Shown in pieces: positions 1 to 34,814 of a DNA stretch of 64,000 nt. The notes under the pieces were generated by a model, which was not told where the DNA came from, searched no databases, and saw nothing but the letters and a program-made list of their open reading frames with translations. Origin of the DNA: Thermoanaerobaculia bacterium (lineage in GTDB: Bacteria; Acidobacteriota; Thermoanaerobaculia; Gp7-AA8); NCBI GenBank assembly GCA_017883205.1, contig JADGNZ010000005.1, positions 30,989-94,988 on the forward strand, written 5' to 3'. Numbering within the stretch: position 1 is the first letter of the stretch; each line of letters begins with the position of its first letter. The position numbers were made by a program, and so were the translations under genes.

Positions 1-3000
1 TCAGCCGGAAAGGTTCGCCTGCCGAGTAACCCTGCCCGTCTTCCCACAGGATGGTCGTTTCTCCCTGGACGCACTTCACGAGCCTGCGGTAGGAGAGCGT
101 GGCGCCGAGCGAGAGGCGGTAGTAATTACTCTCGTCGGCATAGCGAAGCAGCAAGCCGATCTCGCCGCCGGCGTCCGCGCGCAGGTCGACGGTCAGCCGG
201 TAGTCCGTCCATTCGCTGTCGCCGGCCATCGCATGCGTGCCGGGAAGTTCCGGCTCGTTGCCGCCGCCGACGCCGGAGACCTCCACCAATCCTCCGCTCT
301 CAATTTGCCAGAGGGAAGAACCGCCCGCGTCCGGCGCATCGACGATCGTGAAGCGGCCGAGCGAAGTCTGGTCCAGGAAGCTCTCGAGCAACAGCACAGG
401 GTCTCCCACCATCTCCGACAGCGGTCCGGGAAGCTGTCGCAACTCGATGCGCTGCCGCGTCAAATCGGCGGCGTCGCGCAGCAGCAGGGTGACTGCTTCG
501 TCCTCGGGACGGTTCGCTCCGAGGGAGACATCCGTCAATTTGAGCGTGCCCGGCGCGACACCGGGCGGCACGGTACGCCCCGACTGCGACAACGCCAGCT
601 CGGTCCGCGTGGGATCGATCGGCTCGGGGCTGCGCAGAAGGAAGATCGGCGAGCCGCCGTCGCGATCGACGCGCGTGACCTCCACTTGCGCCGAGTTCTG
701 CCGCGCAGCTGGGCCGAGAACCTTTGTTGCCAGCTCCTCAAACGCTCGCGCCTCTTTCTCGTCCGGCGGCGTGAACGAGGGAGCCACCGACTCGCTTAGC
801 ATCGCGTCCACGGTGGGGTCAGCGGCAAGACTCGCCTTCCACGTCTCGTCCTGGAAGCTGTGCAGGTGATGGAAGAAGTTGGCGTAGAGCGAGGTGGTTA
901 GCTGGTAGCGATAGACCGCCGGCGCCCCGCGGCGGAGATCATCGACGACGACGTCGCTGAAGCTCGCACCGGCCGCCTGGCAGGTATAGAGGCCGATCCG
1001 GCCGCGGTCGTAATCGCTGTCGACCACATCGAACACCGGTTCGCCGTCCAGATAGGCTTTGATGGAGGTGCCGAGAACCTCGACGGTCAACCGGTAGTCG
1101 CGGTTTTTCCGGTACGCGAAGTGATCCTCGGCCAGCAGCGTCGTGACTCCGGACGCCATCTTCACAAGGCGTCGAACCCTGCCATCCAGCGAGAAGCGGT
1201 AACCGCTTCCGAGGCCCTGCTGACGAACGACGAAGCCCACCGCGCCGCCCGTCGCCGACCGGGCGTAAACGCTCACCCGGTAGTCCGTCCACTGCGAAGG
1301 CCGTCCGGGGTCGCCGGCCGGAAGTTGCGATGGGTCGGCAAGCAGAAGCAGCGTACCCGCCCGGTCCGCCCCCGGATCGCCGATGGCGGAGACTTGCTCC
1401 GCGAAGTAACTCGGCGGGTCGCCGGCGTCGCCGACCTGCCAACGGGATGGGCCACCCGATCCGGCGTCATCCACGAACCAGCCGGGAGGAGTGACACCGA
1501 GGGAAGCGCCGGCGAAGGCCTCGTGCAGAAGCAGCGGGACGAGGCGAGCCTCGTGGAGCGTGTCGGGCGCGAGCACGCGATCGGGATCCGATGACGCGAG
1601 GGCACTCGCGTGCACGAAGGTTTGTGGATCGAGCTTGTTCTGCAGGCAAGTAGCTGTGTTGACGAGCGTGACCCAGTGCGTGTCTTTGTCGGAGAGCGTG
1701 AGCGTCTCCGCCTTCCCCCACCGATTGCCGAGGACGAGCAGCCGTCCCAGGGTGTCGCGCGCCGGCTGATTGTTGTTGTCAAAGAGGTAGAGGCCGAGGT
1801 CGCGCTGGTCCATGCGGTACATCTGCTCGACGTAGTCCTCGTTGAACTCCACGCCGAGGTCGTACGCGCGGTAGAACGGCCGGTAGAGGATCGGCTTCTC
1901 GCCCGGCGGCGGCACGGTGGGCGGGTCAGTCTCGTGTACATAGCGGACGAGGTCGTCCAGGCCGCTGTCGAAGTTGTCCGGCGACACCCCGTCGGGCGGC
2001 AGCAGTTTGGTCAATCCTGGAGGGCCTTCGGTGCGGAAGTAGGCGTGCTCCACCGGGGTGACGTCACCCGAGAAACTGATGTTCGCAATCGGGGTCGGAT
2101 GAACCAGCGTCGTCACAGTCAGCCGATAGGTCGTGTTCGGCGCCAGAACCGGCTCTTCGTCGTGCCAGCGCGCGAGCTCCTCCTCGACATGTTGGATCAG
2201 CTCTTCGCGCCGCACGGCCTGACCGGCCTCGGGATCGGGCGTCATGCAGATCATCTGGATACACTGGCCGCTGTCGGCGGTCACCACGACGTCGATGATC
2301 TCCGCTCCCTTCCCGTCGATCTCGTTTCCGATCGGGAAGAACGGACCGTACGCGTGGCCATGTGCGTCGTAGCCGGTCGCGGACGGCCCGGCCGGCCGCG
2401 TGCAGAGGTAACAGACGCTGTGGACCAGCTTTTCGTTGCCGGTGGCGTGGACCTCGACGCGCTTGATCTCCGGCCCCTCGAGGCGGATGGTCTCCGTCGC
2501 CTCCGCGCCTGTGCCGAAGGGTGCATGCGTGGCCACAGCGGCGCCTGCCTCGTTAAAGGCAATGATGCGGAACGGCGGCCGGTGAGTGATGATCAGCTCC
2601 ACCCACGGCGACGTGCAGGGGAGCTCGATGTCGAGTTGGAAGCCGGCGTTGAGGCCGAGCGGCGATACCCCCCAACGCTCCACGCGAGCCTGCGGCAGGA
2701 GCAGACCGTCCGCCCCGAATACGGTGAAGCGCACGTCCCCGTCACTCCAGGGATTGGCCAGCGTACCGGCAGCGTGTCCGCGGACGTCGACGCACGTAGC
2801 AGCGGGGGCACCGAAGGTGAAGACTGCCAGTGCGACCGGAGGGGCTGTTACGGCGGAGGTGGCCGCTGGCGTTGGCTCAGCCGCTGCTGACGCGGCCGGG
2901 TGCGGCGCGGGTGACGGGACTGGTGACGGCACTGGTCCGGGCGCTGGCACAACCGTCGCCGCTGGAGCAAAAAGGATGCGGAACGATCGTTCCGGCTGAG

Positions 3001-6000
3001 TGGGAGTGGGGCGAATGTGAACGCCACGCCGCATCGTCTCCGCGGAGAAACAGAGAACGTTGACCGGTCGGAGCGCTCCCTCGGCCCCCAGCGTCCGCTC
3101 CACGACTGTGGCCGGACCGAATCCCCACGAGAGCGTGAAGGCCGGTGGTCCGGTGTGTGTCCACGGAGACTTCAACGCGGTCCCTGGTTTCAGCTCACCA
3201 AACCCGAAGCATGTTTCCTGGGCCGGCAGGAGCGGGATGCACGGGTAGTCCGGCAGTCCATCGGAAACCCATTCCTCCCATGAGGAGCCGGTGGCGCGGG
3301 TGAAATCGAAGGGTGATTTGGACCAGACCAACAGTTTCGTTTGCCCGGGGCCCGGGCTGGAATCGGGGAGCTTCGGACCCGGCATCCACGAGCCGAAGAG
3401 CGCCGGGATCGTGCCCGTCTTGGGACTCATCGCGACGGTTTGCCAGCTTGCGCCGTCCCAGCGGCTCAGCGCGAGGCTTTCCAACGCATACGTCACAGTT
3501 GCCACCGCGCGGCCAGGAGCGCCGATCTCCTCCGGCATGGCCGGTTGCGGGTTGACGCCGGCCAACGCCTTGTCCTGGACCGAGCGGCCGAACGTCACGG
3601 AAAGGCGCGCGTCGAGAGGAACCAGAGGAATGTGAGGAGGGACCGTGGTGAGATCCGGCAACGTGGGCCCACCGGGGGGCACGGAGAGGAAGCCTTCGCC
3701 ATCGTCCCAGTTCGGCAGCAGGTACTGTCCGCGTGGCAGCAGCCATTTGACCGTGCTCTTGAGAGACTCCACGGCAATCTGCTTCACGGGCAGAGGAAGC
3801 GGCGGCGCAATCATCCGCGGGCCCCACTCGAGCCTGACCGTGGCCCCGATCTTCTTCTTCTTGAACGGCACCTTGATCCCGACGCTGAACGTGCCGAGGA
3901 GGTGGTAGGGCCTGAACAGGTCGGCCGCAATCAGCGCGTCGAGGGAGATCCCTAAGCCGATGCCGAAGGCGCTGAGATCCACGAGGCAATGAATGGAAAG
4001 GTCGCCGTGAAAGTGGATCGGCTTGAAGCTCAGCTTGGCGTTCCCCTCGGCCCACGCCTCGAGGCGGACTCTCAGCGGCCCGAACTTCCAGGCGTGGTTG
4101 TAGCCGTACCACGCCCCGAGGGCGAGCGCATGCGCGTCCAGCATGAAGTAGGCGTTGGCCTCGACGAAGTGGCCGAAGAGAGCGCGGATGCGCAAAGAGC
4201 GCGGCTCGTCCTTGCCGAGCCAGAGATGCCAGGCGGTCGCATCGTGGAAGGCATAGAACGCCTCCATGCTCCCGCCGATCTCGATCAGCTCCCCCCCCTT
4301 GCCGGTCTTGTACTCGGCGTCGAGTCCGATGAGGAGGCTGCCGGCGCGCCCGTCGAGCACGGCCAGCGCGCGGAACTGCCCTTCGTCGTTGGCGTCCTTC
4401 TGTTTCTTCAGGAACGAGGCTGCGCCCTGGAGCATGATGATCGGCCCGGGGATGACGATGGCCAGGAGGAACTTGCCGTAGAAGCTGTAGCCGTTGTCCG
4501 CGAGCGTGCCGAGCGTGATCCCCGCACCGAGGGCGAAGCTTCCCTTCTGTGGGCCCCACTTGTTCTTGAGGTCCGTGATCCCGGGTGTGTCGCGATGGTA
4601 GAAGCTCTTGCTGTGATCGATGGAGAACCACATCTCCTCGGGCTTCTTGTTCGGCTCCATCTGCAGGGCGAAGAGACCGGCGAAGCCGTAGAAACCGAGC
4701 CCCGTGGCGGCCAGCGGGATGCCGGTCGGCAACTCGGCGTCGACGTAGATGGCGAAGAAGTTGTACCGTCCCTGCGGCCCGTTGACCGAGCCGATGACGA
4801 TCGTGCCGTCGATCTCGAGCTCCGGGGTGGCGAGCTGGAGCTTGATGTCGCCGTCGAAGCGGTGAATGGTGTTGGCGCCGTCGGCGATCTCGCGATAGGA
4901 GACGGACCCCTTGAAGTACAGAACATCAGGGATCAACAGCTCGACCCCGGCGCCGTTCAACGTGATCTTCGCCGGACGTCCGTCCTCGTACCATGTGATC
5001 CGCAGCCCCTCGACCGAGGCGCCTTGCGGCAGCCCGTCGACCAAATGGATACCACCGGAGAAGCCGATCCACTTCCCGCCATCGTCTGTACTGCCGAAGC
5101 CAAGCTGCGTGATCTCGATCTTGAAGCCGTAAAAGTCGAAGGTCTTCTGCTCGGGCAGCTTCAACCACCCGCCGTCGAGGTGGACGTGGCCTTTGGAGTC
5201 GATCGAGAGCTCTTTGACGTCGAAGGTGGGCCATGTGAGTCCGCCGAAGAGGGGGGTGAGTTTGCCAGAGAGCCCCATTGTAAAAACGTCGTCGGCGACA
5301 TCGAAGCCGATGGAGTCGAGCTCCATTTCGAGGACATTCGGTTTCGTCAGAGTCTTGAGGCCGTCGGGGCCTGTGCCAGCCAGGGAAACGTGAAAGCTGC
5401 CGTCGACGGCGAGGTTGACCTCGACTTCTGCTGGTTCATCGAAGAACGGAAGAACCATGAGTCCCTTCAGCGACGATTCGACCGGAATGTCCTGCTTGAG
5501 CTCCACCATCAACGACTCGATCGTAAAGGGACAACCAAGGAGTGTTCCGCTGCCGTTGGCGGGCGTCCAGGTGGCGGTCACTTTGCCACTGAAACCGGAC
5601 GAGCCAATCAAGAGATCGGCCAAGATCACCGCGTCTGGCACTCCGTGGACGGCGATCGGACCGGTGAAGTGAAGACTCGCACTGTTGATGGCGACGCCTC
5701 GAAAGCCGGGCTGCGCTCCGGGTGGCGGAGGCTGTTTATCGGAAAGGTACAAGCCAACGCCGGTCACTTCGAGGACGATGCCGCTATTCCCCAGCATTAC
5801 CGCCGGTAGAGATAATGCAGGTTGGCCGATGATGGAGATGTTCCAATCGCCCGCGAGAACGACTTCGGCGCCGGAAACGACGATCTCCGCTGGTTTCGGC
5901 TTGCCTTGCAGATCGAGCTCGGGCACCCATTTGCCAGAGATGTCCTGATGCACGCGGCGAAGCAGCTCGCTCTTTAGACGCAGAGCCGCTTGAAGGTTAA

Positions 6001-6289
6001 ACAGACGGTATTCGAAATCAGGATGCCGCCGGTGCGCAAATGCGACCTCGGTAATTCCATGTTCCGCTAGTAACGCCACACTCACTGAGTCAAGCGCGGG
6101 CAACGGAAAAACAATCTCCCGCAACCAGGCGATCCGGCCTGTCGTTTCGAGCACGGTCTCGTCGTCACGAACGACATCGAATTCCGTGTAGCCGACTTCA
6201 TCGAGCGCAGGATCAAGATCGGCGAACTTAGAAATCAGCTTCCGCGCCCATTTGGGAGACGTCTGTCGTAACGGTGCGAATTCAAACAT
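1..6289 (-). CDS. Giant multidomain protein, 5' portion (>=2096 codons in window; 3' end and stop lie beyond the window start). N-terminal ~360 aa have no recognisable family. The downstream part contains repeated ConA/LamG-like jelly-roll modules (motifs ...QWTDYRVSVYA..., ...SEWTDYRLTVDL...).
   Basis: Not in the supplied ORF track because no in-window stop. Hand translation of the reverse complement from ATG at 6289..6287 gives MFEFAPLRQTSPKWARKLISKFADLDPALDEVGYTEFDVVRDDETVLETTGRIAWLREIVFPLPALD...GLSGKLTPLFGGLTWPTFD for about 360 codons with no stop. The frame was re-checked at ~3358 (SPGPGQTKLLVWSKSPFDFTRAT) and ~298 (SGGLVEVSGVGGGNEPELPGTHAMAGDSEWTDYRLTVDL); both are in phase with the ATG (distances 2931 and 5991, multiples of 3). 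The ATG lies 7 nt after the TGA of the upstream gene (6299), so translation is likely coupled. Every competing ORF in 1-6290 on other frames is Arg/Ala-rich low-complexity. Confidence 0.8.
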   Translation of the reverse strand, partial: MFEFAPLRQTSPKWARKLISKFADLDPALDEVGYTEFDVVRDDETVLETTGRIAWLREIVFPLPALDSVSVALLAEHGITEVAFAHRRHPDFEYRLFNLQAALRLKSELLRRVHQDISGKWVPELDLQGKPKPAEIVVSGAEVVLAGDWNISIIGQPALSLPAVMLGNSGIVLEVTGVGLYLSDKQPPPPGAQPGFRGVAINSASLHFTGPIAVHGVPDAVILADLLIGSSGFSGKVTATWTPANGSGTLLGCPFTIESLMVELKQDIPVESSLKGLMVLPFFDEPAEVEVNLAVDGSFHVSLAGTGPDGLKTLTKPNVLEMELDSIGFDVADDVFTMGLSGKLTPLFGGLTWPTFDVKELSIDSKGHVHLDGGWLKLPEQKTFDFYGFKIEITQLGFGSTDDGGKWIGFSGGIHLVDGLPQGASVEGLRITWYEDGRPAKITLNGAGVELLIPDVLYFKGSVSYREIADGANTIHRFDGDIKLQLATPELEIDGTIVIGSVNGPQGRYNFFAIYVDAELPTGIPLAATGLGFYGFAGLFALQMEPNKKPEEMWFSIDHSKSFYHRDTPGITDLKNKWGPQKGSFALGAGITLGTLADNGYSFYGKFLLAIVIPGPIIMLQGAASFLKKQKDANDEGQFRALAVLDGRAGSLLIGLDAEYKTGKGGELIEIGGSMEAFYAFHDATAWHLWLGKDEPRSLRIRALFGHFVEANAYFMLDAHALALGAWYGYNHAWKFGPLRVRLEAWAEGNAKLSFKPIHFHGDLSIHCLVDLSAFGIGLGISLDALIAADLFRPYHLLGTFSVGIKVPFKKKKIGATVRLEWGPRMIAPPLPLPVKQIAVESLKSTVKWLLPRGQYLLPNWDDGEGFLSVPPGGPTLPDLTTVPPHIPLVPLDARLSVTFGRSVQDKALAGVNPQPAMPEEIGAPGRAVATVTYALESLALSRWDGASWQTVAMSPKTGTIPALFGSWMPGPKLPDSSPGPGQTKLLVWSKSPFDFTRATGSSWEEWVSDGLPDYPCIPLLPAQETCFGFGELKPGTALKSPWTHTGPPAFTLSWGFGPATVVERTLGAEGALRPVNVLCFSAETMRRGVHIRPTPTQPERSFRILFAPAATVVPAPGPVPSPVPSPAPHPAASAAAEPTPAATSAVTAPPVALAVFTFGAPAATCVDVRGHAAGTLANPWSDGDVRFTVFGADGLLLPQARVERWGVSPLGLNAGFQLDIELPCTSPWVELIITHRPPFRIIAFNEAGAAVATHAPFGTGAEATETIRLEGPEIKRVEVHATGNEKLVHSVCYLCTRPAGPSATGYDAHGHAYGPFFPIGNEIDGKGAEIIDVVVTADSGQCIQMICMTPDPEAGQAVRREELIQHVEEELARWHDEEPVLAPNTTYRLTVTTLVHPTPIANISFSGDVTPVEHAYFRTEGPPGLTKLLPPDGVSPDNFDSGLDDLVRYVHETDPPTVPPPGEKPILYRPFYRAYDLGVEFNEDYVEQMYRMDQRDLGLYLFDNNNQPARDTLGRLLVLGNRWGKAETLTLSDKDTHWVTLVNTATCLQNKLDPQTFVHASALASSDPDRVLAPDTLHEARLVPLLLHEAFAGASLGVTPPGWFVDDAGSGGPSRWQVGDAGDPPSYFAEQVSAIGDPGADRAGTLLLLADPSQLPAGDPGRPSQWTDYRVSVYARSATGGAVGFVVRQQGLGSGYRFSLDGRVRRLVKMASGVTTLLAEDHFAYRKNRDYRLTVEVLGTSIKAYLDGEPVFDVVDSDYDRGRIGLYTCQAAGASFSDVVVDDLRRGAPAVYRYQLTTSLYANFFHHLHSFQDETWKASLAADPTVDAMLSESVAPSFTPPDEKEARAFEELATKVLGPAARQNSAQVEVTRVDRDGGSPIFLLRSPEPIDPTRTELALSQSGRTVPPGVAPGTLKLTDVSLGANRPEDEAVTLLLRDAADLTRQRIELRQLPGPLSEMVGDPVLLLESFLDQTSLGRFTIVDAPDAGGSSLWQIESGGLVEVSGVGGGNEPELPGTHAMAGDSEWTDYRLTVDLRADAGGEIGLLLRYADESNYYRLSLGATLSYRRLVKCVQGETTILWEDGQGYSAGEPFRL

Positions 6290-6298
6290 TTGTATGGC

Positions 6299-8746
6299 TC
6301 AAAAATAATCCGCAAATTTTGGGTTGGCGGCGACGCGTGAAATTACACTCTCTGCCAGATTTCTGAAGCCCGGCGCCCTCAGGTGCATCTCATCCCGCCA
6401 TAAATCGGTTGACGCATTTAGACGACGAGCATCGACATAGTCGAATAGTGGGTACTGCGCCTTCAGCGGATTCAATATCGTGCTCACGAAGCCGTCGAGC
6501 AGCGTCTTCAGTCCAATCTTCTCGATGACGCGGCTCGCGATATTCGCCTCGCGGAACCGATTATTGAACCATGGGCCGGCTAGATCTATTTGTCCGTACC
6601 CCGAAAGGGATGTAGGAGTCTCATTAAATAGTGGGTAACAATACGTGTGCATGATGACTGGAATCCCAAGCGAATCTGCCTTCGTTAGAAGCACTTTCAG
6701 GTAATTCGTTACATCGCCATAGCGCGCGCTGAACAATGGCCAATCAAACACTGTATTCAGCAGGTGAGCGGCGGGGGTGTTCGGCAGGACATCGTCAGGA
6801 AAGTTCGCGATGACGCTGTCACCGATTGGTTGCAGAATCAATGGCACGAGCGGGTTCGGAACGGGCCAGACATTGGGAACCTGGGCGAAGGTTCCGACCG
6901 CTTGCAGCAGAGGATCGAGGATTGCGCTCATCGCGGCTTCGCTCAGCTGCGCGTGATTGTGAAGGTACGCATGCCAGCGGTGGTTTTGGAGAAGTACAGC
7001 GAAGGACCGCTTCATGAGCATCTCGGCCAGCGCCATGTCGCTCGTGCTGAGAAATAGTTTTGCCACGAAAGGATCGAAATAGCCGTCCGTAAAATAGGGC
7101 CTGAACAGGTCCAGGGCCGTATCATTGCCGATCCCCGGCTCCGCGAAATCGTTGCCGCCTGCGCTGCAGACGATAAGATCAATCTGATACTCCCTAAGAA
7201 AATCCTCGGTGAAGTTCCACTGTCTGGTTTTCCCCGCTATGGCGAGAAACATCTGGTCGGCTCGGTCGCCGAAGTGTTGAAGTGGGATCCTGTTGTACGC
7301 GATCCCCGGCCGTAGCCGATCCCAAAAGAGTTGGTCAAGCTGCCCGAAGAGGTCGTTGAAGGCGAGGGGATAGTTCAGCCATGAATCGCCCTCCACAAGA
7401 ATATTGAACGTGGTGGCTTTCGGCGGCAGTACATCGCGTTTATAAAAAGATTCGAACGCGGCGATACAACTGAGCCGGTCGCTCTGGCTGAAAATGAGAT
7501 TCGGCTCGAAAAAGGGCGGTACGATTTTCGCCGCCGATACCAGCACACCCAGGTCCTGCTCGCCCGCATTGCCGCGATCCTCGCCGATCACCTCATCCTT
7601 TCGATGCGCTACGAGGTCGTTCACGAACGACTGGTACTGCGGGTAGATCTCGTACTTCGCTTTGTACTCCCACGCGTTAACGTGGTTTGCGTCGACGTGC
7701 AGCCTTGCCTTGTGCGCGTTCGTCGCGACGTCTGTCGAATACAGGCGGTTGCCGTAGGTCTTGCCGGATGTCTGATACCGAAAATTGATCATCGCCCGGC
7801 TGGGCAGCGCCAGCACGCTGAGATCGATGCTCCCGTCGGCTCCTGTTTGTGCCGTACCCATAGGAACGCTTGGAATCAAATCGGCCACGCCGGAAGGCAT
7901 TGGAGCTCCAGCGAGAAGTGTGACCTGAGTATTCGCCAGCGGCTCGTAGCTGAAAGTGACGTTGTTCCAGATCAGAAACCGGGAAAGAAAGTGCACGCTG
8001 ATCGGGCCGCTGATCGCCTTGACCAAGGGGTGTCCCGCATACCTCGTAAGGCCCTTGACCGTCAGAGCGTTGTCGACGAGGTCTTCCGGCGGCACGCTGA
8101 CCTCTGGATCGGGGCCGAACGGGTCGAAAAACGTTTGGAGGGTGAAACGCGCCACCTGATCGTTCGGATCAACCGTGGCTTCACCGAGAGGTGTACCTCG
8201 ACACACGAAGATTGAGGCCGTTCCCCCAATAAACCGCTGCACGAGCGTGCTCTCGAGCATGTCGCGGTTGGGAATTGGTCCCGTGCCGCCACCGTCTGTC
8301 CACGATTCACGCAGTACAGGCAGGCCGAATGTTGCCACCACTTCCTTCACGGCGTTCTCGACAGAAGCGGGACTAAGAGAACCGAGTACAATCCGGTTGG
8401 GACGCAGTCCGCCCGGCGGCTTGACTAGGTCGTCGTAGTCCTTGAGCCACACGCGCAGCACGACGTCGCCGAGCTCGTAGCTGATGAATCCGGATGTGCT
8501 CGCGAATACTGTCGACATCGGAACGATCGGGTCGTCGTGCATCACCTGCGAATTCGCAATGCCAATCTCCAACGGACCGTCCGGATCAGGCGAAGAAGCG
8601 GTTATGACGACGCCCTTCTGTTCGATCTCGCTGTAGTGCACGAGGGGATCTCCGAGCTTCGTGTCTGGCAGGACGACCGGCAAATAGAAATCGGGAAGAA
8701 GCAAGTCGGTGGCTTGCCGCTTGATCCAATCGCCGAAGCGACTCAT
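6299..8746 (-). CDS. 815-aa protein: N-terminal ~430 aa unknown, C-terminal SGNH/GDSL-type hydrolase (esterase/lipase-like) domain
   Basis: Supplied ORF with protein-like composition. SGNH block I 'VEGDSWLNYPLAF' (GDS nucleophile motif) and block III 'VCSAGGNDF' (GxND) are seen directly in the translation. Start overlaps the stop of the upstream 1731-aa gene (ATGA at 8743-8746). No N-terminal signal peptide. Confidence 0.85.
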   Translation of the reverse strand: MSRFGDWIKRQATDLLLPDFYLPVVLPDTKLGDPLVHYSEIEQKGVVITASSPDPDGPLEIGIANSQVMHDDPIVPMSTVFASTSGFISYELGDVVLRVWLKDYDDLVKPPGGLRPNRIVLGSLSPASVENAVKEVVATFGLPVLRESWTDGGGTGPIPNRDMLESTLVQRFIGGTASIFVCRGTPLGEATVDPNDQVARFTLQTFFDPFGPDPEVSVPPEDLVDNALTVKGLTRYAGHPLVKAISGPISVHFLSRFLIWNNVTFSYEPLANTQVTLLAGAPMPSGVADLIPSVPMGTAQTGADGSIDLSVLALPSRAMINFRYQTSGKTYGNRLYSTDVATNAHKARLHVDANHVNAWEYKAKYEIYPQYQSFVNDLVAHRKDEVIGEDRGNAGEQDLGVLVSAAKIVPPFFEPNLIFSQSDRLSCIAAFESFYKRDVLPPKATTFNILVEGDSWLNYPLAFNDLFGQLDQLFWDRLRPGIAYNRIPLQHFGDRADQMFLAIAGKTRQWNFTEDFLREYQIDLIVCSAGGNDFAEPGIGNDTALDLFRPYFTDGYFDPFVAKLFLSTSDMALAEMLMKRSFAVLLQNHRWHAYLHNHAQLSEAAMSAILDPLLQAVGTFAQVPNVWPVPNPLVPLILQPIGDSVIANFPDDVLPNTPAAHLLNTVFDWPLFSARYGDVTNYLKVLLTKADSLGIPVIMHTYCYPLFNETPTSLSGYGQIDLAGPWFNNRFREANIASRVIEKIGLKTLLDGFVSTILNPLKAQYPLFDYVDARRLNASTDLWRDEMHLRAPGFRNLAESVISRVAANPKFADYF

Positions 8747-11700
8747 GGCGCCTCCCCCGGAAGAGCGACAGCAATGACTGTATCTTCCGTCGACCAGACT
8801 CCGCTCGACGAGCGCACGCGGAGCCGATAGGAGCTTTCAACCGTCGGATCGGCATCCTGATCGAGAAAGACATATCGCTCCGGCTGCGATGGGCTTGTGG
8901 TCACAATGCCGGAGAGATCGGACCAGACACGCTCTCCCGGACTCATTCGTGCTATGTCGAACTGCGGTTGAGGAGTTTCCGACCGCCATCCCAATCGCAC
9001 TACGGCCTTGAAGCCCGCTTGAATCACACCGTCCACCGGCCACGGAATGAGTGCGCCATCAGCCTGACGCTGCAGGAGCCAGGTTCGCTCCTCCACATCC
9101 GGTGACGGCGGAATGGTCGTATCGATGACAACCGCCGCCGCAATGCGGCTCGGTGCGGACTCGTTCCCAACGGTATCGATGGCAGTGAGGCGATAGAAGA
9201 CCTTCTGCCCTCCAACAAGTCCGAGTGTGTCGGTCCATGCGGCGGCAGGCTTGGTGGGGTCGATGTCGGTCAGCGCGACTGTATCCACGACATCCATTGA
9301 TCGCAGGTCTTGCGCGTTGTTTTCGTCGCCGGTCCGATAGAAGCGGTACTGTGCGAGATCCGGTTCGCGATTGCGCGCCCATGCGAGAGTGATTGCCCGT
9401 TCGCCAGTGACCACCTTCGTAATCACCGGTGCCCGCGGCGGCTCCACCTTCGGCAAATACACCGGTGGCCCCGGGAGGCTCAATGCGCCCTGGTTCTGGG
9501 CGCCGTCCACGAATGACGCGCGGTAGAAATAGCGGTTGGTGGCGCGGCCGGGGAGCGTGTCCATGTAGGCGCGGAGGGCGGGATCGGGTGGGTAGGTCGC
9601 TTTATCGTCCGGGCGGCGTTGGTCCTGGATCTCGGGGTCGGACATGTCGAAGGGATGGATCGTGATCCGCGCGAACGCGGCCTCGTTCCCTGGCAGGGCG
9701 GCGAGGAGGCGCAGAGCGCTATCGGGCAGGGTGGCGTAGTCGGTGGAGGCGCTGATGACGTTGACCGCTCCCAGGGCGGCGAGCTGCGTTGCCGGGTTCC
9801 AGTAGCCTGGAAAGAGGTCCGTGTCCGCGACAGTGAGATTCGTGTGCGTTCGGCGGATGAGCCAGTCGCGCGCCTTCAGGTCGGTGTTCTGCGGAATCGG
9901 CTTGTTTCCGGCGGCGCCTTCATTGCCCGGCAGGCGCGCCAGGACGCTCCAGGCGTCATTGGAGAGCGAGTCGTAGCCGGTTTCGGCGGTGATCGCTTTG
10001 AGCGCGTCCGCCGCGGCCTGGCGAGTCGCCTGGTTCACGTCGACGAATGCGTCGGCGTGTTTCGCCGGGTCGAGCGCTTTTCGTGTCTCCCGGATCAGCC
10101 AGTCGCGCTGGAAGAGAGTGTCATCCAGCGCCCGCAGAATGTGGACCTTCAGCGGTTGCTGGGGGTCGTTGAAGCGAAAGGTCGTGTACGAGCGGCTGTG
10201 GTAGTCGGCCGGAGTGGCGATGAGCCGCTCGGCGAGTACGGGCAGATCAGGCGCCTGCGGCGCCTTCTGCAGCACGCGAAAGACCGTCGCCGACGGCGAG
10301 AGACGGCTCTCGTTGCCAACGAGGGTTCCGCCGGGAAACGTGTCGGCGACGTGCGTCCTGTTATCCGCGGCGCTCACGGCGACCTGTGCGTAGACCGAGG
10401 GGTCGGCAAGAGTCGGCTCGAACGGCTGATTAGGACCTACGTCCGGAGCGGGGAGGAAAACGTCGTACTCGCGGGCCGGCCGGCCGACGATCCACGACAC
10501 CGGCGCACCGACGGTCGGAGGCGTCTCGAGCGTCACCGTGCACGAGGTGACGTTGAAGCGCAAGATCCGAATGCGCTGCTCCGCGCCGCTCGCGTCCTTG
10601 AGCCAGAGGTGATCGATCCATGGCTGGATGCCGGAAAGCTCGGCCTGCAGCGGAAGCTCAACGGTCGTACCGTTGATTGTGATTTGCGCGGCGAGATGGG
10701 CGTCCGTGAATGCCTTGTCGGAGAGAGGCAGGCCGTTGCCGTCCTTCGACGGATCGACCACGATCCGTGCCGGCGGGTCGTACGGCACCGTAGTGATACG
10801 CATCGCCCACGTCGTGGCCAGGCCGGTATCGACCCAGAGCGCGTGCTTCTCCGGGATAGCAATCGTGCACGGCTTCCCTACCGTCGGGCCGACGTCATTG
10901 TTCGCGCCGATGTTGTTGACTCGCAGTCGCAGCTTCGTTCCAGGCTGGCTGCCCACGACCTCGAAGTCGTTGTTGCCCACCCGCAGACGAGTACCGGCGA
11001 AAACGCCGGCGTTGCGGGGATCGGCGAAGTCGAGATCGACGTCGCTCTGAACCGCCGAGGCGGCGGTGACCGTGTCGACTCTCCCCAGCAGAGCGTTCCA
11101 GCGCCCCGGCTGGAAATAGAGCCGGAACTGGTTCGTGTCGGGCGCCTGGATCTGCTGCATCAGCGTCCAGCGAAAGCGGACGCGAAGGCCGACAAGATCG
11201 GGAGAGACGCCGTTACGCCAGGTCTGGTAAGCCGCATCGGCGAGGATCCAGCGATCGAGCGGATCGAGCGCCCACGCTTCCACGCCGAGGGGCGTTGGCG
11301 GCGGCATCTTGTCGAGCAATGCAACGGCGAATGGATCGATCGAGCCGTCGCCGACGGCCGGCTGGTAGTACCACGGGGCGGCTGTACCTGAAGGCGGAAC
11401 CCACTGGTACCACTCGGCGGGCGGCCCCGGCGCGCTGAAGCGGCCGAAGATATCCTGGCCGGCGACACGGTAGCTGTACCAACCCTCGGGCAGGTTGCTG
11501 TCGACGATGTAAAGCGGAGTCGCGGGAGGCGGCCAGTCGGAGCTGCGCGGATTGGGGCTCACAGGCGGGATCTGCGGATCGGGCTCGGAGATGAGCACCG
11601 GCGAAAGCCTGGTCGTGTATTGCGAAGGATCCGGCTCCGTAGCCGGCCTGGTGGAGCCAAGGGAGGCGCGCCTCGGTTTGTAGAAGACGATCTGGTCCGG

Positions 11701-13938
11701 CTGCGGCTGTTGGTCGGTCGTGTCGGGAGGGAGCGGCCACCAGAGGCCCACGCTGCCCGCCGCCTCGGCAGGGAGCGTCCCGTCGATCGCGCGGGTGGCC
11801 ATCCCGGGAAGTGCGTAGGCGCGCGGTGGGCCGGGCGGCGCGATCGGCGCGCGCGGCTTCATGCTCTGGTCGAGCAGCAGCTCTTTCCAGACCGCTTCCG
11901 CGTCGCCGGTGAACGCGAGCCAATCGAGGGCACTCGCGGCGCTGCCACCGAGGGCTCCTGTCGTATCGCCGAGGAGGAGGTAGTCATAGGCGACATCCGG
12001 CTGTGCTGAATCATCCGCGAAGTAGAGGCCGAGCATCTGGGCGAACGCCGGGTGCAGGCTGGCCAGGAAGACGACGTCCAGCGGCTTCAGCCCCGGGAGA
12101 GTCGGAAGATCCTCGGTGACGGGCGAGAGCGGCTGACCCGCAAGATCGGGGTGTACGACGTCCGCCATCGCCACGCCGGCCGGCCCGCCGTGAACGAGCA
12201 CCACCAACTCGGCGTGCAGATCGGAGAACCCCTGATCCCATCCCGTCGGAGCGCGATAGGTCACGCGCGAAAAGGCGAGAGTCTGGGCGTCGGCGCTGGT
12301 CGTCGGTTTGCCCGGACAGGGGTAGCCGGCGTCGGCGACCGGCAGGCAGAGGGGGTACTGGAACTTCGGCACCTCCTGCCAACCGAACGTGTCCGATTGC
12401 TTGCTGGGCACGTAGCAGATGTCGACGAGCGCTGCATTGCCTGCGGCGATCTCGATGGCGGTGATTCCGGCGATCGATACGGCGTTCGGCGAGCCTCCGA
12501 TCAGCGTGCCTGCGACGACTTGTCCGGGATCGCCGCTGATCACCACCTGAGAGACCACCGAGTTGTCCTGCCCCAAGCCGCGGACCGCAATCTCGGTCGG
12601 GCCAGGAGCGGCTGCGACGCAGTCGAAGAAGATGCGGTGCAACAAGCCGTCTTGACCAGGCATGTCGACCTGGATGCGGGTGATCGCCGCGCCTTCGAGT
12701 ACGACCTCGGCCGCGCCTCCAGTGCTTATATCGAGGCTCTGCGCCAGGGTACCGTCCTGGTTGAAGGCCTGCACGTGCACCGGCGGATCGTTCGACGCGT
12801 CCACGGGAACGCCCCCGACGTTACGCGTCCGGGAGAATTGCATTGTCACTTTGGTCGTCAGGCAGGGAAGCTGGATGTCGATCCTCGGGCCCAGCAAGCC
12901 GGTCCAAGCCTGACCCCGCTTATCGAAAGAAGCGAGTGGAAACGGCCGCAGTTGCCCCACCGCGTCATAGCCGAGGACCTGGAAGGAGACTCCCTGCTCG
13001 ACGACCGGGTTGGGCCGCTGGACGACCGAGTTGGGAAACTGACCGACCGGCCACTCCTCGAAGTTGGCGTCGATGGTTCGTCCGTCCGGACCGCCCTTCG
13101 GGCACTCCCAGCAGATCTCGTGAAGGAGCGCCGACTCGACGCCCGCGCTTTCAAGCGTCACGCGGGTGATCGCTTTGCCGCTCAGCCGGACGGCGCCGGA
13201 CTGGAGAGCCAATTGCGCGAAGCTCTGGGCGCCGACGCTTGCGCCTGCGCTCTCGAAGCCTTCGATCCGGACGTCGGCCGGGTTGGTGACCAGAAGGTCC
13301 ACGCGGGTAGCCGGGCAAGGCAAGGCCACCGTGATCCGCACGGAGCTCTCGAATCGTGATGTCCCCTCGAGGCCTCGGGGGCTCCCGCTCAACTGCCCGA
13401 TCAATGCGTCGGCACTCGGTGGCGTGAGCACCGCCTCCACGGTGAAGGCCGCGCCCTGCTCGGTGCGCGGGTTCGGTCCGCTGCCAAGCGGGGAAAGGCG
13501 GAAGTCGACGCAGGTTCTCGTCACTTCCCCGGCGCGGAATCCGATGCTCACAGTCGCCGACTGCGTCTCGACGCCCTCCGGCAGATCGAAGCGCAGCGGA
13601 GCGCGGAGGTCTACTTCGGCCGTTCCGGCCGGCGCGAAGTCGTCTGTGAAGACGAGTGCCTTCGGGCTGGAGAGTGTGCCCAGCTTCGTCGGCAGGCTGA
13701 GGCCCTGCGACGTTCCCGGACGGATGCGGCCGAGCTCCGTCTCCAGGCAGAGAGGACGGGTCGGCTGGTTCTCCCGGCGGAAGAGATAGAAGCCATACCA
13801 GGGGAAGCCCAAAGCCTGATCCGGCGCCCAGCGCAGATGGTTGGCGTCGACAAGGGGTGTCTGCTCAGGGTCCACGGGATGATCACCGCGGATGCCGAGC
13901 CCCAGCATGCTGAGGCGATCCTGAGCTTCGTTGCTCAT
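8743..13938 (-). CDS. 1731-aa giant protein of unknown function; C-terminal region has fibronectin-III-like modules (e.g. ...AITLAWARNREPDLAQYRFYRTGDENN...); no signal peptide, no P-loop
   Basis: Continuous ORF with diverse, non-low-complexity composition. It is antisense to several long Arg-rich pseudo-ORFs (9619..11391, 12052..13359), which is expected for a real gene in GC-rich DNA. First gene of a three-gene overlapping/coupled operon (13938 -> below 1). Confidence 0.8.
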   Translation of the reverse strand: MSNEAQDRLSMLGLGIRGDHPVDPEQTPLVDANHLRWAPDQALGFPWYGFYLFRRENQPTRPLCLETELGRIRPGTSQGLSLPTKLGTLSSPKALVFTDDFAPAGTAEVDLRAPLRFDLPEGVETQSATVSIGFRAGEVTRTCVDFRLSPLGSGPNPRTEQGAAFTVEAVLTPPSADALIGQLSGSPRGLEGTSRFESSVRITVALPCPATRVDLLVTNPADVRIEGFESAGASVGAQSFAQLALQSGAVRLSGKAITRVTLESAGVESALLHEICWECPKGGPDGRTIDANFEEWPVGQFPNSVVQRPNPVVEQGVSFQVLGYDAVGQLRPFPLASFDKRGQAWTGLLGPRIDIQLPCLTTKVTMQFSRTRNVGGVPVDASNDPPVHVQAFNQDGTLAQSLDISTGGAAEVVLEGAAITRIQVDMPGQDGLLHRIFFDCVAAAPGPTEIAVRGLGQDNSVVSQVVISGDPGQVVAGTLIGGSPNAVSIAGITAIEIAAGNAALVDICYVPSKQSDTFGWQEVPKFQYPLCLPVADAGYPCPGKPTTSADAQTLAFSRVTYRAPTGWDQGFSDLHAELVVLVHGGPAGVAMADVVHPDLAGQPLSPVTEDLPTLPGLKPLDVVFLASLHPAFAQMLGLYFADDSAQPDVAYDYLLLGDTTGALGGSAASALDWLAFTGDAEAVWKELLLDQSMKPRAPIAPPGPPRAYALPGMATRAIDGTLPAEAAGSVGLWWPLPPDTTDQQPQPDQIVFYKPRRASLGSTRPATEPDPSQYTTRLSPVLISEPDPQIPPVSPNPRSSDWPPPATPLYIVDSNLPEGWYSYRVAGQDIFGRFSAPGPPAEWYQWVPPSGTAAPWYYQPAVGDGSIDPFAVALLDKMPPPTPLGVEAWALDPLDRWILADAAYQTWRNGVSPDLVGLRVRFRWTLMQQIQAPDTNQFRLYFQPGRWNALLGRVDTVTAASAVQSDVDLDFADPRNAGVFAGTRLRVGNNDFEVVGSQPGTKLRLRVNNIGANNDVGPTVGKPCTIAIPEKHALWVDTGLATTWAMRITTVPYDPPARIVVDPSKDGNGLPLSDKAFTDAHLAAQITINGTTVELPLQAELSGIQPWIDHLWLKDASGAEQRIRILRFNVTSCTVTLETPPTVGAPVSWIVGRPAREYDVFLPAPDVGPNQPFEPTLADPSVYAQVAVSAADNRTHVADTFPGGTLVGNESRLSPSATVFRVLQKAPQAPDLPVLAERLIATPADYHSRSYTTFRFNDPQQPLKVHILRALDDTLFQRDWLIRETRKALDPAKHADAFVDVNQATRQAAADALKAITAETGYDSLSNDAWSVLARLPGNEGAAGNKPIPQNTDLKARDWLIRRTHTNLTVADTDLFPGYWNPATQLAALGAVNVISASTDYATLPDSALRLLAALPGNEAAFARITIHPFDMSDPEIQDQRRPDDKATYPPDPALRAYMDTLPGRATNRYFYRASFVDGAQNQGALSLPGPPVYLPKVEPPRAPVITKVVTGERAITLAWARNREPDLAQYRFYRTGDENNAQDLRSMDVVDTVALTDIDPTKPAAAWTDTLGLVGGQKVFYRLTAIDTVGNESAPSRIAAAVVIDTTIPPSPDVEERTWLLQRQADGALIPWPVDGVIQAGFKAVVRLGWRSETPQPQFDIARMSPGERVWSDLSGIVTTSPSQPERYVFLDQDADPTVESSYRLRVRSSSGVWSTEDTVIAVALPGEAP

Positions 13939-14599
13939 TCGACCTTCTTGCGCGAGACGTGCCGCGCGTTAGATTGTTGGGACCCTCTAATCATAGGAGT
14001 GCCCCGATGAAGGATTTCCCTACCTGCGGATCGATATTTATTTTTTTAGCTCGCCGTTCCGATCTTCAGGGTGGAAACGGAGCCGCACCTTGGTGATCGC
14101 GAAGTAGTCAGGAATCAACAGGTTGCCGGGCGACTTTTCTCCGACTATGTTCGTCTCGTATCTCGCGAGACGGTCGATTCGTAGGGCTGTTCTTCCAAGG
14201 CCGAAGACGTACATTGTTCGGCGGGTCTCCTGACAAAATGGAAGCAGGGGAGGCGATGGCCGCGGCCGCCCAAGGTAACGCCAGCCGGCAGGTCGACCTC
14301 TTGGCTCAATCCGCAGCCAGCGCGTCTTGATTCTGTGCAGGAAGAAGCTGCTTTGAGCAGCCGGGGGGCGGCTGACTCAGCCCTCGACGCATTCGTGCAC
14401 CTTTTTCTATCGTCATCGCGGGCCGACGATCTCGACCTTTCCTGCATGCTTTTCTTGAGCGGGTGTCGTTCGGGTGTCGATGTCGCCATCTCACGGATAC
14501 TCTTGGACGGATGTGGACGCTCGGGCCTCGCCGCAAGTCGTTGAAGGCACGAGCGTCCGGAAGTATCCAGAACTTTGCTGAACAATTCGTAATAGCAGG

Positions 14600-14629
14600 T
14601 CAGCGGTTCAAATCCGCTCAACGGCTCCA
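14600..14629 (+). other. tRNA-like 3' fragment: T-arm (AGCGG-TTCAAAT-CCGCT) + 7-nt acceptor 3' strand (CAACGGC) + discriminator + CCA; no convincing complete cloverleaf upstream
   Basis: GGTTCAAATCC T-loop consensus with perfect 5-bp T-stem, followed by CAACGGC-T-CCA at 14619-14629. Attempts to fold a full class I or class II tRNA from 14537/14554 fail in the D and anticodon arms. Confidence 0.3.
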
Positions 14630-14798: not shown

Positions 14799-17700
14799 TT
14801 AACGGACGAGGTCGCGCAGTTCCTGAAGATGGGTGCCTTTCACGACTGTCGTTCCGGCGACGATGGTTGGGTCTGTGTAGCTCGGCGTCACTCCGATGGC
14901 GCTGAGGACTGGAGCCAGGGCGGTGCGCAGCTCTGTAACGTGAACTGCTTTGATCGTTGCTCCCGCTCCGAGGGACGGATCGGTGAACGTGAATGACGTC
15001 TGACCGACGCTTGCCCGAGCCGCGTTGATGGCAGTCCGAAGCTCGGTGATGTGGATTGGTCTGATGAGCGTATGGCACGCGGTGAGCGATGGATCGGTGA
15101 ACACGATCGTGGTCGCGGCATCGATGGCGGAGTATCCCGAAGCGGTGGTATCGGCCTTGATTGTCCGCACCTTATAGAGGTAAGTCGTCGACGGATTGAG
15201 ACCGGACTCCGAGAACGTGGTGAGAGTGTTCGTTCCGCGCAACGTCCAGTTGATGTTGTCGGTGCTGCGATAGATCTCGTAGGGATCCGCGGAGGTAACG
15301 GTTGCCCAGACCATGTTCACGCTCGTCGTGCTCGTTGTAGTGGCGCTGAAGTATGGCGGCGCACCGAATGGTGCCAGTTGTACGGTGACGTTCGCCGATT
15401 TCGAGTCCGAGCAGCCGAAGGAATTCGTCACGGTGACGAAGAGCGTGAGTGTGCCGGCTCCGCCCGCGGTGAATGTGATGCTGCGCGTGCCATTGCCTGA
15501 TGTGATCGTGCCGCCGGTGATGCTCCAGGAGAAGGTCGCACCCGTGCACTCATGGACTACCGAAGCGGTAGCGCTTGCGCCGGAGTACATCGGCGATGGG
15601 ACGCTGATCGTTACATTCGGCTTCGGATTGACGGTGACGGTTGTCGTTGCCGACGCGGCGCTGGTGCAGCCGCTTGCCGTCGTGGTCACGCTGTACGCGC
15701 CGGTGAGTGTAGCGACGGTGGTCTGGCTCGTTTCGCTGCCGAGCAGCACACCATTCCGATACCACTGGTTGCCGGTAGCGCTGCTCGACGTGAGCGTCAC
15801 GCTTCCGCCTTGACAGAACGTTGTGGAGCCTCCGGCGCTGATGGTCGGTGTGGCGGGAATCGGATTCACAGTCACGGCGGTGGGCGCCGACGGGGCGCTG
15901 CTGCAGCCGTTCGTGACCACGACGGTGTAATTGCCGGATGCGGTGGCGTTGTAGGTCTGATTGGTGGCGCCGCTAATCGAATTGCCGCCGAGGAACCACT
16001 GGTAGCCGCCAGCGCTGCTAGAGGTCAGCAGGACGCTGCCTCCGTTGCAGAACGTCGTCGGTCCTCCGGGCGTGATGGTCGGTGTGGAGGGAGGCTGATT
16101 AACGGTGACAGCGATCGCCGGCGACGGGGCACTGCTGCATCCGCTGGTGGTCACGACCACGGTGTAGTTCCCGGTGGCGACGGCGCTATAGGTGTTGCCT
16201 GTCGCGCCGGTGATCAGGCCTGCGTTCAGGAACCACTGATTGCCGGCCGCTGCGCTCGATGTGAGGGTGACGCTGCCACCGGCGCAGAAGGTCGTCGGGC
16301 CGCCGGGGGTGATCGTAGGCGTCGCCGGAGCTGTGTTTACGACGACATTGGTTGATCCTGCGGCGGACGTGCAGCCGGCGACGGTCACGGTGACAGAGTA
16401 GCTGCCCGCATTGGCGGCGGTGGCGTTGGACCGAGTGGGATTCTGTTGCGATGACGTGAAGCTGTTCGGCCCCGTCCAGGAGTAGGTCGCGCCAGCCACG
16501 GCCGGCGTGAAAAGGGAGATGGTCGCGCCTTCACAGTACGGTCCGCCGTTGGTGGCGGTTGGCGTGGCCGGGATCGTGTTTACTGCGACGCTGGTCGATC
16601 CGGCTGCGGAGGTGCAGCCGTTGACCGTGATCGTCACGGAGTAAGTTCCCGCGTCGGCGATCGTCGCGTTCGAGCGTGTCGGGTTCTGCAGAGCAGACGT
16701 GAAGCCGTTCGGACCTGTCCATGAATACGTGGCACCACCTACGGTCGGCGTGGAAATTGAGATCGTTGCGCTTTCGCAGTACGGACCTCCGTTCGACGCG
16801 GTTGGCGTGGCCGGAGCCGGATTGACTACTACGTTCGTCGTGCCGGCGGCCGAGGTACAGCCGCTGACAGTAACCGTCACCGAGTATGTCCCGGCATCTG
16901 CCGTCGTGATGTTGGCGCGCGTCGGGTTCTGCTGCGAAGAGGTGAAGCCGTTCGGACCGGTCCAGGCGTACGTTGCACTGGCGACGGCAGGAGTGGAGAG
17001 CGAGATCGTTCCGCCCTCACAGTACGGGCCGCCGTTGGATGCGCTCGGCGTCGCAGGAATCGGATTTACGACAACGCCTGTCGTCCCCACGGCGGATGTG
17101 CATCCGCTCACCGTGACGGTCACGGAGTACGTCCCGGCATCAGCCGTCGTGGAGTTGGCTCGGGTCGGGTTCTGGACGGACGAGGTGAAACCGTTCGGGC
17201 CGGTCCAGGCATAGGTGGCGCTGGCGACGGTTGGTGTAGAGAGCGAGATCGTTCCGCCTTCGCAGTACGGACCGGTGTTCGATGCCGCCGGCGTCGCGGG
17301 GATGGGGTTCACAACCACGCTCGTCGTGCCGGCCGCGGAGGTGCAGGTGCCGACGGTGACTGTCACCGAATAGGTACCCGCGTCCGCGGTCGTGGCGCTT
17401 GCACGCGTCGGGTTCTGAAGTGCGGAGGTGAAGCCGTTGGGACCGGTCCAGGCGTAGGTGGCGCTGGCGACGGTTGGTGTGGAGAGCGAGATCGTGGCGC
17501 CCGCGCAATACGGGCCGCCGTTGGAGGCCGTTGGCGTTGCCGGCGTGGCATTCACAACAACGCTCGTTGAGCCGGCCGCCGAGGTGCAGCCGCTGACCGT
17601 TACCGTGACGGAGTAGGTACCGGCATCGGCAGTTGTGGCGTTTGCGCGCGTCGGGTTCTGAAGCGCTGATGTGAAGCCGTTCGGACCGGTCCACGCGTAG

Positions 17701-21456: not shown

Positions 21457-21721
21457 GTCGATCCTCGTTGCATTGGATTAGTCGGATCTGACACAGACGG
21501 TGTGGTTCTGCGGTGCAGTTTGTCTTCGCGTCGTGCCGGCGGCAAAGCCTGCAGAGTTCTGACAACGAGTTTGTCCCGGTCGTCACCAGAAAGTTATTCC
21601 AGCAACAATGGTCGCAGCACGACCTGTTGTCAATGTGATGATTGAGGCGAACTGCATTGGCACGGAGAGCAAGCCTCAGCGCTCTCTGCGACTCTGTGGT
21701 TGGGGGACCCTGAGTAAGTAC

Positions 21722-34283: not shown

Positions 34284-34814
34284 TTATTCCGTGGCCCTTG
34301 GGCACACATAGAACGGCTCTACACTCGCGAGGCCGATGAGGAGCTCAACGAAGAATTGGACCGCGGCGATGCCTCGGAGCCTTTTGTCGATCCACTCCTT
34401 GGGGTAGCCTTTCTTTTCGTAGAGCTCCTGCATCCGGCCCATCGCCAGCTCGGGGTTCTCGATCTCGTCAATGCGTTCCTTGCCGACGCGCGCCAGCCAG
34501 CGCTTGAGCGGCTCTACTTTCGGCGAGGGAATGGACTGGATGACCCGGAACAGTGTCTCGGTGTTGGCGCAGTCGGTCTCGTAGAGCTTGCCGTCAGTGG
34601 ACGGCATTTTCAGTTGTCCGATTTTTTCGGACAACTGATCGTAGCCCTCCTCGAACAGCTTCTTCTTCAGGTCATTCCAGTACTTGCGAGCGCGGTCGCC
34701 GCCCACTAATGCCTGGACCACGTCGACGATCGAAAACCACCACTCGCCCTCACGGAGCACCTTTCGGATCTGACGACCTTCGAACACAACGAGCTTATTG
34801 TCGTTTTGACTCAT
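34284..34814 (-). CDS. Bro-N domain protein (DinD / DNA-damage-inducible protein D-like)
   Basis: Bro-N signature NKLVVFEGRQIRKVLREGEWWFSIVDVVQAL...RKYWNDLKKKL. Lys/Glu-rich protein with visibly lower GC and more AAA/GAA codons than its neighbours. Start moved to MSQNDN (ATG ~34814). Confidence 0.65.
   Translation of the reverse strand: MSQNDNKLVVFEGRQIRKVLREGEWWFSIVDVVQALVGGDRARKYWNDLKKKLFEEGYDQLSEKIGQLKMPSTDGKLYETDCANTETLFRVIQSIPSPKVEPLKRWLARVGKERIDEIENPELAMGRMQELYEKKGYPKEWIDKRLRGIAAVQFFVELLIGLASVEPFYVCPRATE

Follow-up and report, generated by a model that had tools for sequence, protein, structure and literature searches.

Two kinds of described system come closest to the locus considered here. 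The Tc (ABC) toxins of Photorhabdus and Yersinia are made of three very large components, TcA, TcB and TcC, which lack signal peptides, are encoded together, and are reported to be released by lysis. The largest subunit carries receptor-binding β-sandwich modules; the enzymatic cargo, which is the autoproteolysed C-terminal hypervariable region of TcC, varies between loci that spread horizontally. The polymorphic toxins and the effectors of type VI secretion systems (T6SS; Rhs, contact-dependent inhibition or CDI, Tle including the PLD-type Tle5, Tae, Tge) instead join a conserved part to variable hydrolases directed at lipid, peptidoglycan or protein, and exchange these modules. The subject of this analysis is a cassette of three genes, here called A, B and C, in a 64,000-nucleotide stretch of DNA ("the window": positions 30,989 to 94,988 of contig JADGNZ010000005.1, assembly GCA_017883205.1) from a Thermoanaerobaculia bacterium of the phylum Acidobacteriota. 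The cassette works most like one or the other of these two kinds of system, yet fails the tests that define them.

Comparison of homologous loci shows a self-contained and mobile unit: two conserved giant proteins composed of predicted β modules and lectins, and one exchangeable, putative hydrolase. Its layout in the window is as follows.

8743-13938, minus strand: gene A, a 1731-aa open reading frame; conserved giant scaffold protein 1
8743-8746, minus strand: overlap of the A stop and the B start, ATGA
6299-8746, minus strand: gene B, an 815-aa open reading frame; variable cargo slot, here of the SGNH type
6290-6298, minus strand: 9-nt spacer, GCCATACAA, from the B stop to the C start
1-6289, minus strand: gene C, the first 2096 of 2678 codons; conserved giant scaffold protein 2, of a DUF6603-like family

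The three genes are co-directional, tightly coupled and arranged head to tail in the order A, B, C. A preliminary description of this DNA had already taken them for one unit, joined by the ATGA overlap at 8743-8746 and by a gap of 7 nt separating the end of B from C. The unit and the overlap hold up; the gap is in fact the 9-nt spacer, which leaves no room there for an immunity gene. The same description had followed the third gene, open, to the window edge: its frame (2-6289) is indeed open over all 2096 codons up to that edge, and the complete protein (P0001, 2678 aa), identical in sequence to one recovered on a Logan contig, L001, continues it uninterrupted. (A technical note: the database version of A, P0141, starts 10 codons later than the open reading frame listed above.) GC content at the third codon position (GC3) is 0.80 for both A and C, and the pattern of GC over codon positions is that of real genes; with hundreds of homologues, A, B and C are in any case far beyond chance open reading frames.

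Homologues of C number in the hundreds, measure 2.4-3.2 kaa and are annotated as hypothetical; those of A number 69. A profile of C scanned over one genome per species yielded 39 loci, distributed over Acidobacteriota, Chloroflexota (including Nitrolancea hollandica), Alphaproteobacteria (Microvirga, Rhizobium), Actinomycetota (Gordonia rhizosphera), Bacillota (Paenibacillus mendelii), Bacteroidota and Gemmatimonadota; Planctomycetes, Entotheonellia and Verrucomicrobiota contribute additional matches at the protein level. Wherever there is enough flank to tell (33 of 33 loci), a homologue of A lies upstream of C, at a distance of 1.3-2.9 kb, and both proteins retain 35-58% identity across phyla. 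Judged by sequence, the A-C pair is conserved over at least nine bacterial phyla. (Two shorter proteins, L042 with 689 aa and L043 with 425 aa, resemble the C profile in internal or C-terminal stretches alone and stand without a neighbouring A homologue; they are perhaps decayed copies, or relatives at the level of domains.)

The co-occurrence of the three genes in other genomes, which the preliminary description had proposed as a check, turns out to be that of a retained pair, A and C, around an exchanged middle gene. The gap between A and C is filled by a single open reading frame in 32 of the 33 loci (L027 has only two, of ~125 aa each), and the genes in the gap fall into six clusters with no BLAST similarity between them.

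PLD cargo (Pfam PLDc_2), 13 loci: one HxKxxxxD motif each in 12 of these, none found in L019
SGNH cargo, the type found in the window, 4 loci
Zincin cargo (snapalysin-like), 4 loci: HEFGHLxGLAD motif
Trypsin/Nal1-like protease cargo, 1 locus: GDSG motif
U1 cargo, 6 loci: PDB profile matches to lytic transglycosylase B only, weak (E 0.06-0.29)
U2 cargo, 4 loci: invariant Cys and His motifs; no database match

Comparing the families profile against profile also leaves them unrelated, except for an N-terminal domain that some of them share (see below). The catalytic Glu of lytic transglycosylase B aligns with an invariant Glu of U1. Taken as a whole the repertoire spans lipid, peptidoglycan-like and protein hydrolases. 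The cargo gene also falls below A and C in GC content at 23 of 27 loci; the mean difference is 6.6 points and the largest 17 (L018), and such a deficit is the mark that horizontal exchange of a module leaves. In the window B stands at 0.565, A at 0.661 and C at 0.644, and within B the C-terminal (SGNH) half, at 0.537, is lower than the N-terminal half, at 0.590. The survey shows the slot gene to have been swapped, as far as sequences can tell, between lineages, and to encode in each one of several unrelated, predicted hydrolases. This turnover points to dynamics of the conflict type.

Protein B of the window consists of two recognizable parts.

6329-7429, minus strand: SGNH/GDSL hydrolase domain (aa 440-806), assigned from invariant blocks and transitive Pfam Lipase_GDSL matches
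7382-7384, minus strand: predicted catalytic Ser455, in block I
7757-8728, minus strand: N-terminal ~300-aa domain (aa 7-330), common to other cargo families

A direct match of B is found neither in Pfam (at E<=0.1) nor among PDB sequences. The criterion for an SGNH enzyme was the presence of blocks I (GDS), III (GxND) and V (DxxH), which supply the Ser-Asp-His triad and the oxyanion residues. B has these as E452-G-D-S455-W, G530-G-N532-D533 and D785-x-x-H788, and they are invariant in 17 homologues. A profile of B, run against 1.84 billion representatives, retrieves ~270-aa proteins at 1e-12 to 1e-20, which are Lipase_GDSL/GDSL_2 proteins by Pfam in the five of five tested. Together, the link to Lipase_GDSL proteins and the invariant blocks make the assignment of an SGNH/GDSL hydrolase domain, a predicted esterase, sound; it is the only recognizable catalytic module in the locus, just as the preliminary description had it.

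The N-terminal domain is putatively a docking or adaptor domain. Its hidden Markov model (HMM) joins the SGNH, U1 (lytic transglycosylase (LT)-like), U2 (Cys-type) and long PLD types: E-values are 1e-32 to 1e-75 on the seed families, where they are circular, and 4e-5 to 1e-4 on the long PLD types, which had no part in the seed. By the same HMM, a domain of this type is missing from cargo of the short PLD, zincin and serine-protease types. The representative search also returned proteins of 800-1000 aa that match B only over residues 7-330 and end in other modules (TIG, HExxH); the three of these that were looked up all sit between homologues of A and C. Counted over all loci, the slot is occupied by at least seven unrelated families with hydrolase motifs. 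A conserved ~300-aa N-terminal domain attached to different C-terminal enzymes is an arrangement that recalls the polymorphic toxins.

The two giants, A and C, share one kind of module and otherwise differ in what they carry.

12481-13539, minus strand: two carbohydrate-binding-module (CBM)-like jelly-roll repeats of A (aa 134-292 and 310-486)
8758-9471, minus strand: C-terminal FN3-type modules of A (aa ~1490-1727)
3824-6196, minus strand: β-meander region of C (aa 32-822), ~50 long antiparallel strands
2225-2821, minus strand: CBM-like module of C (aa 1157-1355), of the kind also present in A
920-1492, minus strand: first LamG/CBM66-like (DUF1080-type) module of C (aa ~1600-1790), with W-TDYR at aa 1667
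1-367, minus strand: start of the second LamG/CBM66-like module of C (aa ~1975 onward), with W-TDYR at aa 2027

The shared module is ~150 aa long: both jelly-roll repeats of A are homologous to residues 1157-1355 of C. Each of the module types that the preliminary description had read from the letters is present: the FN3 modules that end A, and the ConA/LamG-like W-TDYR modules, two of which begin in the window and of which the complete C has four. Beyond the window the second module is completed and followed by two more and by a C-terminal domain, so that C as a whole is an ~800-aa DUF6603-like β-meander succeeded by four LamG/CBM66 modules. Two conserved hydrophobic hairpins, at aa 602-627 and 768-792, are part of the meander. 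The individual family matches of C fall short of the Pfam cut-offs (PF06439, 3keto-disac_hyd: 3e-4, 21.3 bits against a cut-off of 26.8; DUF6603, PF20248, for the part of C in the window: 19.2 bits against 27). Homologues of C carry precomputed PF06439 and many carry PF20248; the one in Mycetohabitans endofungorum is named "DUF6603 domain-containing protein" by NCBI. C probably belongs to a set of proteins that bear both models, DUF6603 and the CBM66-like DUF1080/PF06439, which are domain labels with no function attached. The CBM66 of a levanase in PDB is matched at 1e-4 by the single sequence of C and at 5.6e-11 by the family profile. Those parts that were modelled (a minimal homologue of A; residues 1-1140 of C) are predominantly β. 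A and C contain no glycoside hydrolase, lyase or esterase catalytic domain by Pfam and NCBIfam, and the view that they are not ordinary polysaccharide-degrading enzymes is borne out to that extent.

What A, B and C lack is equally informative. Simple sequence scans find neither an N-terminal hydrophobic signal nor a transmembrane helix in any of the three; the only two short hydrophobic stretches lie within predicted β hairpins of C. Motif scans find no GxxxxGK[ST] (Walker A, or P-loop) and no Y.YD repeat, RHS and Tc models of Pfam are unmatched, and Pfam, NCBIfam and the motif scan turn up no nuclease, NTPase or nucleic-acid-binding module. Direct scans with Pfam, NCBIfam, PADLOC and PHROGs yield only weak LamG, DUF6603 and FN3 signals; sequence searches of PDB, with single sequences and with profiles, add CBM66 and one weak FN3-type match; and Foldseek against viral structures returns matches driven by FN3 alone (template-modelling (TM) score 0.1-0.2). 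From the missing signal peptides, P-loops and YD/RHS repeats the preliminary description had argued against Tc toxins, RHS proteins, NTPase defence proteins and ordinary adhesins, and it had assigned the proteins to no described system; the domain and motif scans agree on every count. Its further term "apparently cytoplasmic" is not supported: it relied solely on missing Sec signals, which Tc toxin components lack as well, and the CBM, FN3 and LamG content of A and C points outward, to action on envelopes from outside.

How close, then, are the two described designs? With the Tc toxins the cassette has in common that three very large signal-less components are encoded together, that β-sandwich modules of the receptor-binding kind are carried by the giants, that cargo varies from locus to locus, and that spread is horizontal. 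It has no RHS/YD-repeat cocoon of the TcB/TcC type and, by Pfam and NCBIfam, none of the α-helical shell and pore domains of TcA (VRP1, TcdA_TcdB_pore); and its cargo has a gene of its own, placed between A and C in all loci. From the polymorphic toxins it differs in having no immunity gene directly 3' of the cargo, in that the variable unit is a whole gene placed between two giants, and in the absence of PAAR, VgrG, Rhs, CdiA or T6SS genes near annotated copies. Contractile injection systems (extracellular ones (eCIS), T6SS, tailocins) are set apart by their sheath, tube, spike and baseplate genes, none of which adjoins any of nine annotated copies, and the flanks of the same nine hold no secretion-system genes. 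Since the defining features of Tc toxins, polymorphic toxins and injection systems were thus searched for without success, the cassette is filed under none of them; it is outside every described toxin, secretion or defence system.

What would such a unit do? We give a probability of roughly 0.45 to the proposal that A-B-C is a toxin complex of a new kind, which delivers cargo independently of Sec and is directed at cell envelopes. A and C would assemble into a large particle, which would hold B through its N-terminal domain and would leave the cell independently of Sec, perhaps through lysis. The lectin arrays would bind surface glycans of a target cell, which might be a competitor, prey or a eukaryotic host, and the hydrolase would thereby be brought onto or through the target's envelope; the cargo of the window would there deacylate lipids or O-acetylated envelope polymers. 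The β-meander of C with its two hydrophobic hairpins might be a shell or conduit. A more specific form of the proposal, in which the cassette is a delivery nanomachine analogous to Tc toxins but made of unrelated parts (a DUF6603 β-meander shell or conduit, lectin arrays, and interchangeable, fully folded envelope-degrading enzymes), is more tentative. The toxin-like or envelope-modifying machine that the preliminary description had considered gains weight, as a candidate function, from a slot filled elsewhere by PLD, zincin, trypsin-like and LT-like enzymes.

Several considerations weigh against a delivered toxin: 1) That A, B and C come together in a particle is purely inferred. 2) No secretion route was found for the three proteins. 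3) The cassette has no immunity gene, and antibacterial effectors of polymorphic toxin systems that act in the periplasm are usually paired with one. 4) PLD and protease effectors are known from intracellular defence systems, too. 5) The LT-like assignment of U1 (E 0.06-0.29) and the Cys-type assignment of U2 (no match) are weak.

The many carbohydrate-binding-type modules, the degradative nature of the cargo enzymes and the range of hosts (mainly soil heterotrophs, with some predatory lineages: Herpetosiphonaceae, Chitinophagaceae) would also suit a scaffold displayed at the surface or released, on which A and C anchor to polysaccharide and present an enzyme for scavenging, for predation, or for remodelling of the cell's own envelope or matrix. 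Such a scaffold is nevertheless unlikely. An export signal is missing from hosts both diderm and monoderm; A and C, unlike ordinary multidomain carbohydrate-active enzymes (CAZymes), have no glycoside hydrolase or lyase domain; and rapid swapping of low-GC cargo resembles the dynamics of conflict systems.

Conflict may also be fought inside the cell, and the next explanation makes A and C giant sensors in an abortive-infection system directed at phages or plasmids, with B the swappable effector that, once activated, destroys the cell's own membrane, wall or proteins. A variable effector slot that includes PLD and proteases, the lack of signal peptides and of an immunity gene, and a patchy distribution across phyla that points to horizontal transfer are what one would expect of it, and toxin-antitoxin (TA) modules, HEPN/MNT genes, an integrase or transposases do stand beside some copies. 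Most annotated flanks, heterogeneous as they are, consist of housekeeping genes rather than defence islands. PADLOC-DB v2 is unmatched by A, by C and by cargo of the SGNH, U1 and U2 types (zincin-type cargo gives a weak match to Cas7, E 3.6e-4); the cassette offers no NTPase, nuclease or nucleic-acid-binding module; CBM, FN3 and LamG modules are typical of glycan binding outside the cytoplasm; and the substrates of SGNH and LT-like cargo lie outside it as well. Intracellular defence is accordingly improbable, and slightly more so than the scaffold.

A possible distant connection to phage baseplates comes from two plasmids. On pHME322 of the archaeon Haloferax mediterranei (L046, 9706-22819) a C-like gene comes first, then an A-like gene and then a gene for a Baseplate_J protein (PF04865 2.1e-12, phrog_6 2.8e-18), with no other tail gene within 30 kb; on a plasmid of Azospirillum oryzae (L047, 13527-23867), next to a serine recombinase gene, the order is C-like, A-like, and a 786-aa protein that has no Pfam match of its own and is a BLAST relative of the Haloferax Baseplate_J protein (1.6e-9). 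The two arrangements hint at an old link to tail-baseplate modules of phages and eCIS (Baseplate_J, the gp6-gp47 wedge). The cassette proper has an enzyme in the place of the baseplate protein and neither tail genes nor phage homologues, and profile-profile comparison reveals no relation between the cargo families and Baseplate_J proteins. That the cassette is a degenerate or specialised phage-tail or contractile-injection module, in which A and C are receptor binders derived from baseplate or fibre, B is a particle-associated lysin and the tail-like particle is encoded elsewhere, is very unlikely despite the two plasmids, the similarity (in PHROGs) of the FN3 region of A to that of lambda J and an eCIS-like locus at 51-64 kb of the window, since C has no relatives in 50,697 phage genomes or in IMG/VR contigs, PHROGs matches of the cassette proteins are confined to the FN3 module, no copy has sheath, tube or spike genes beside it, and the eCIS proteins of the window, 37 kb off, are not homologous to A, B or C.

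That eCIS-like locus deserves a description of its own. It is partial, occupies 51261-63041 on the minus strand and probably continues to 64000. It encodes a 763-aa protein with an eCIS_core (1.7e-30) and a transglutaminase-like TGL domain, which is likely an eCIS toxin, a DUF6519 protein (3.5e-60), a 1066-aa weak Baseplate_J protein, and two unknowns of 759 and 996 aa. Kinship of its products with A and C was considered and rejected, as a comparison showed no homology.

To return to the delivered-toxin proposal, its neighbourhoods and its mobility remain to be described. Comparison of flanks across phyla identifies no conserved neighbour and no immunity gene; in particular, no small gene is conserved downstream of C, and at other loci, as in the window, the gap between A and C is taken up by B. 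Transposases, TA pairs and an integrase appear in some flanks. Mycetohabitans rhizoxinica HKI 454 has a copy of the cassette on its conjugative plasmid pBRH02, and M. endofungorum one on its megaplasmid; transposases, an integrase and TA genes lie beside the cassette in Mycetohabitans. The pBRH02 copy is the same cassette as that of the window, with PLD cargo in place of SGNH: A has 1322 aa, B 509 aa and C 2337 aa; the N-terminal 1140 aa of its C are 40-42% identical (tblastn), and the HMM E-values of its A and C are effectively 0. Literature searches with DUF6603, PF20248 and the Mycetohabitans locus tags found only the 2011 genome paper on M. rhizoxinica, an intracellular symbiont of a fungus. 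There, a cluster of "three large hypothetical proteins" on pBRH02, one of them (RBRH_03371) a PLD protein, receives a single sentence, as a possible substrate of a type IV secretion system, and no characterisation (Lackner et al. 2011, PMC3102044).

If the proposal is true, bacteria have a new and widespread route by which lipases, proteases and wall-degrading enzymes are deployed against other cells, and the candidate machine is at the disposal of soil Acidobacteriota and Chloroflexota, Gordonia, Paenibacillus and the fungal endosymbiont Mycetohabitans. DUF6603 and hundreds of "hypothetical" giant proteins would acquire a function, and the slot would be a natural plug-in site for folded protein cargo, of interest to biotechnology. 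For the Rhizopus-Mycetohabitans symbiosis, the plasmid copy, noticed in 2011 and never studied, offers a candidate effector system that lends itself to testing.

The 860 bp upstream of A are intergenic and contain a tRNA-like fragment; beyond them lies the gene for a further giant (14799-21545, minus strand; 2248 aa when read from the listed TTG) with Ig_7, PKD, CarboxypepD_reg and FN3 domains, which looks like an ordinary adhesin-like surface protein. Its Sec signal peptide, MKRRMKRIVIGAVLVIGLVGTANG, begins at an internal Met ~30 codons downstream of the TTG, so that the protein is probably slightly shorter than listed. It was considered as a part of the cassette and rejected: it has its own Sec signal, is separated from A by the 860 bp and the tRNA-like fragment, and is unconserved at other loci. 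The fragment itself (14530-14629, plus strand) is a 100-nt "tRNA-Trp" according to ARAGORN and no tRNA according to Rfam; only the 3' part with T-arm and acceptor (14605-14629) is perfect and seems genuine, and it occurs once in the window. It may be the remnant of an att site at the edge of an island that bears the cassette.

Beyond 21.7 kb the genes of the window are those of ordinary redox metabolism. A segment at 36934-45312 (plus strand), which encodes three membrane subunits resembling Mrp/Nuo-type antiporters and a fused 30K/49K subunit of complex I, has a strongly negative AT skew (-0.16 to -0.28) that is probably explained by the codon bias of membrane proteins. At 34287-34910 (minus strand), among regulatory and respiratory genes, lies the gene for a protein with a Bro-N domain (1.1e-10), of a family that phages and mobile elements commonly carry.

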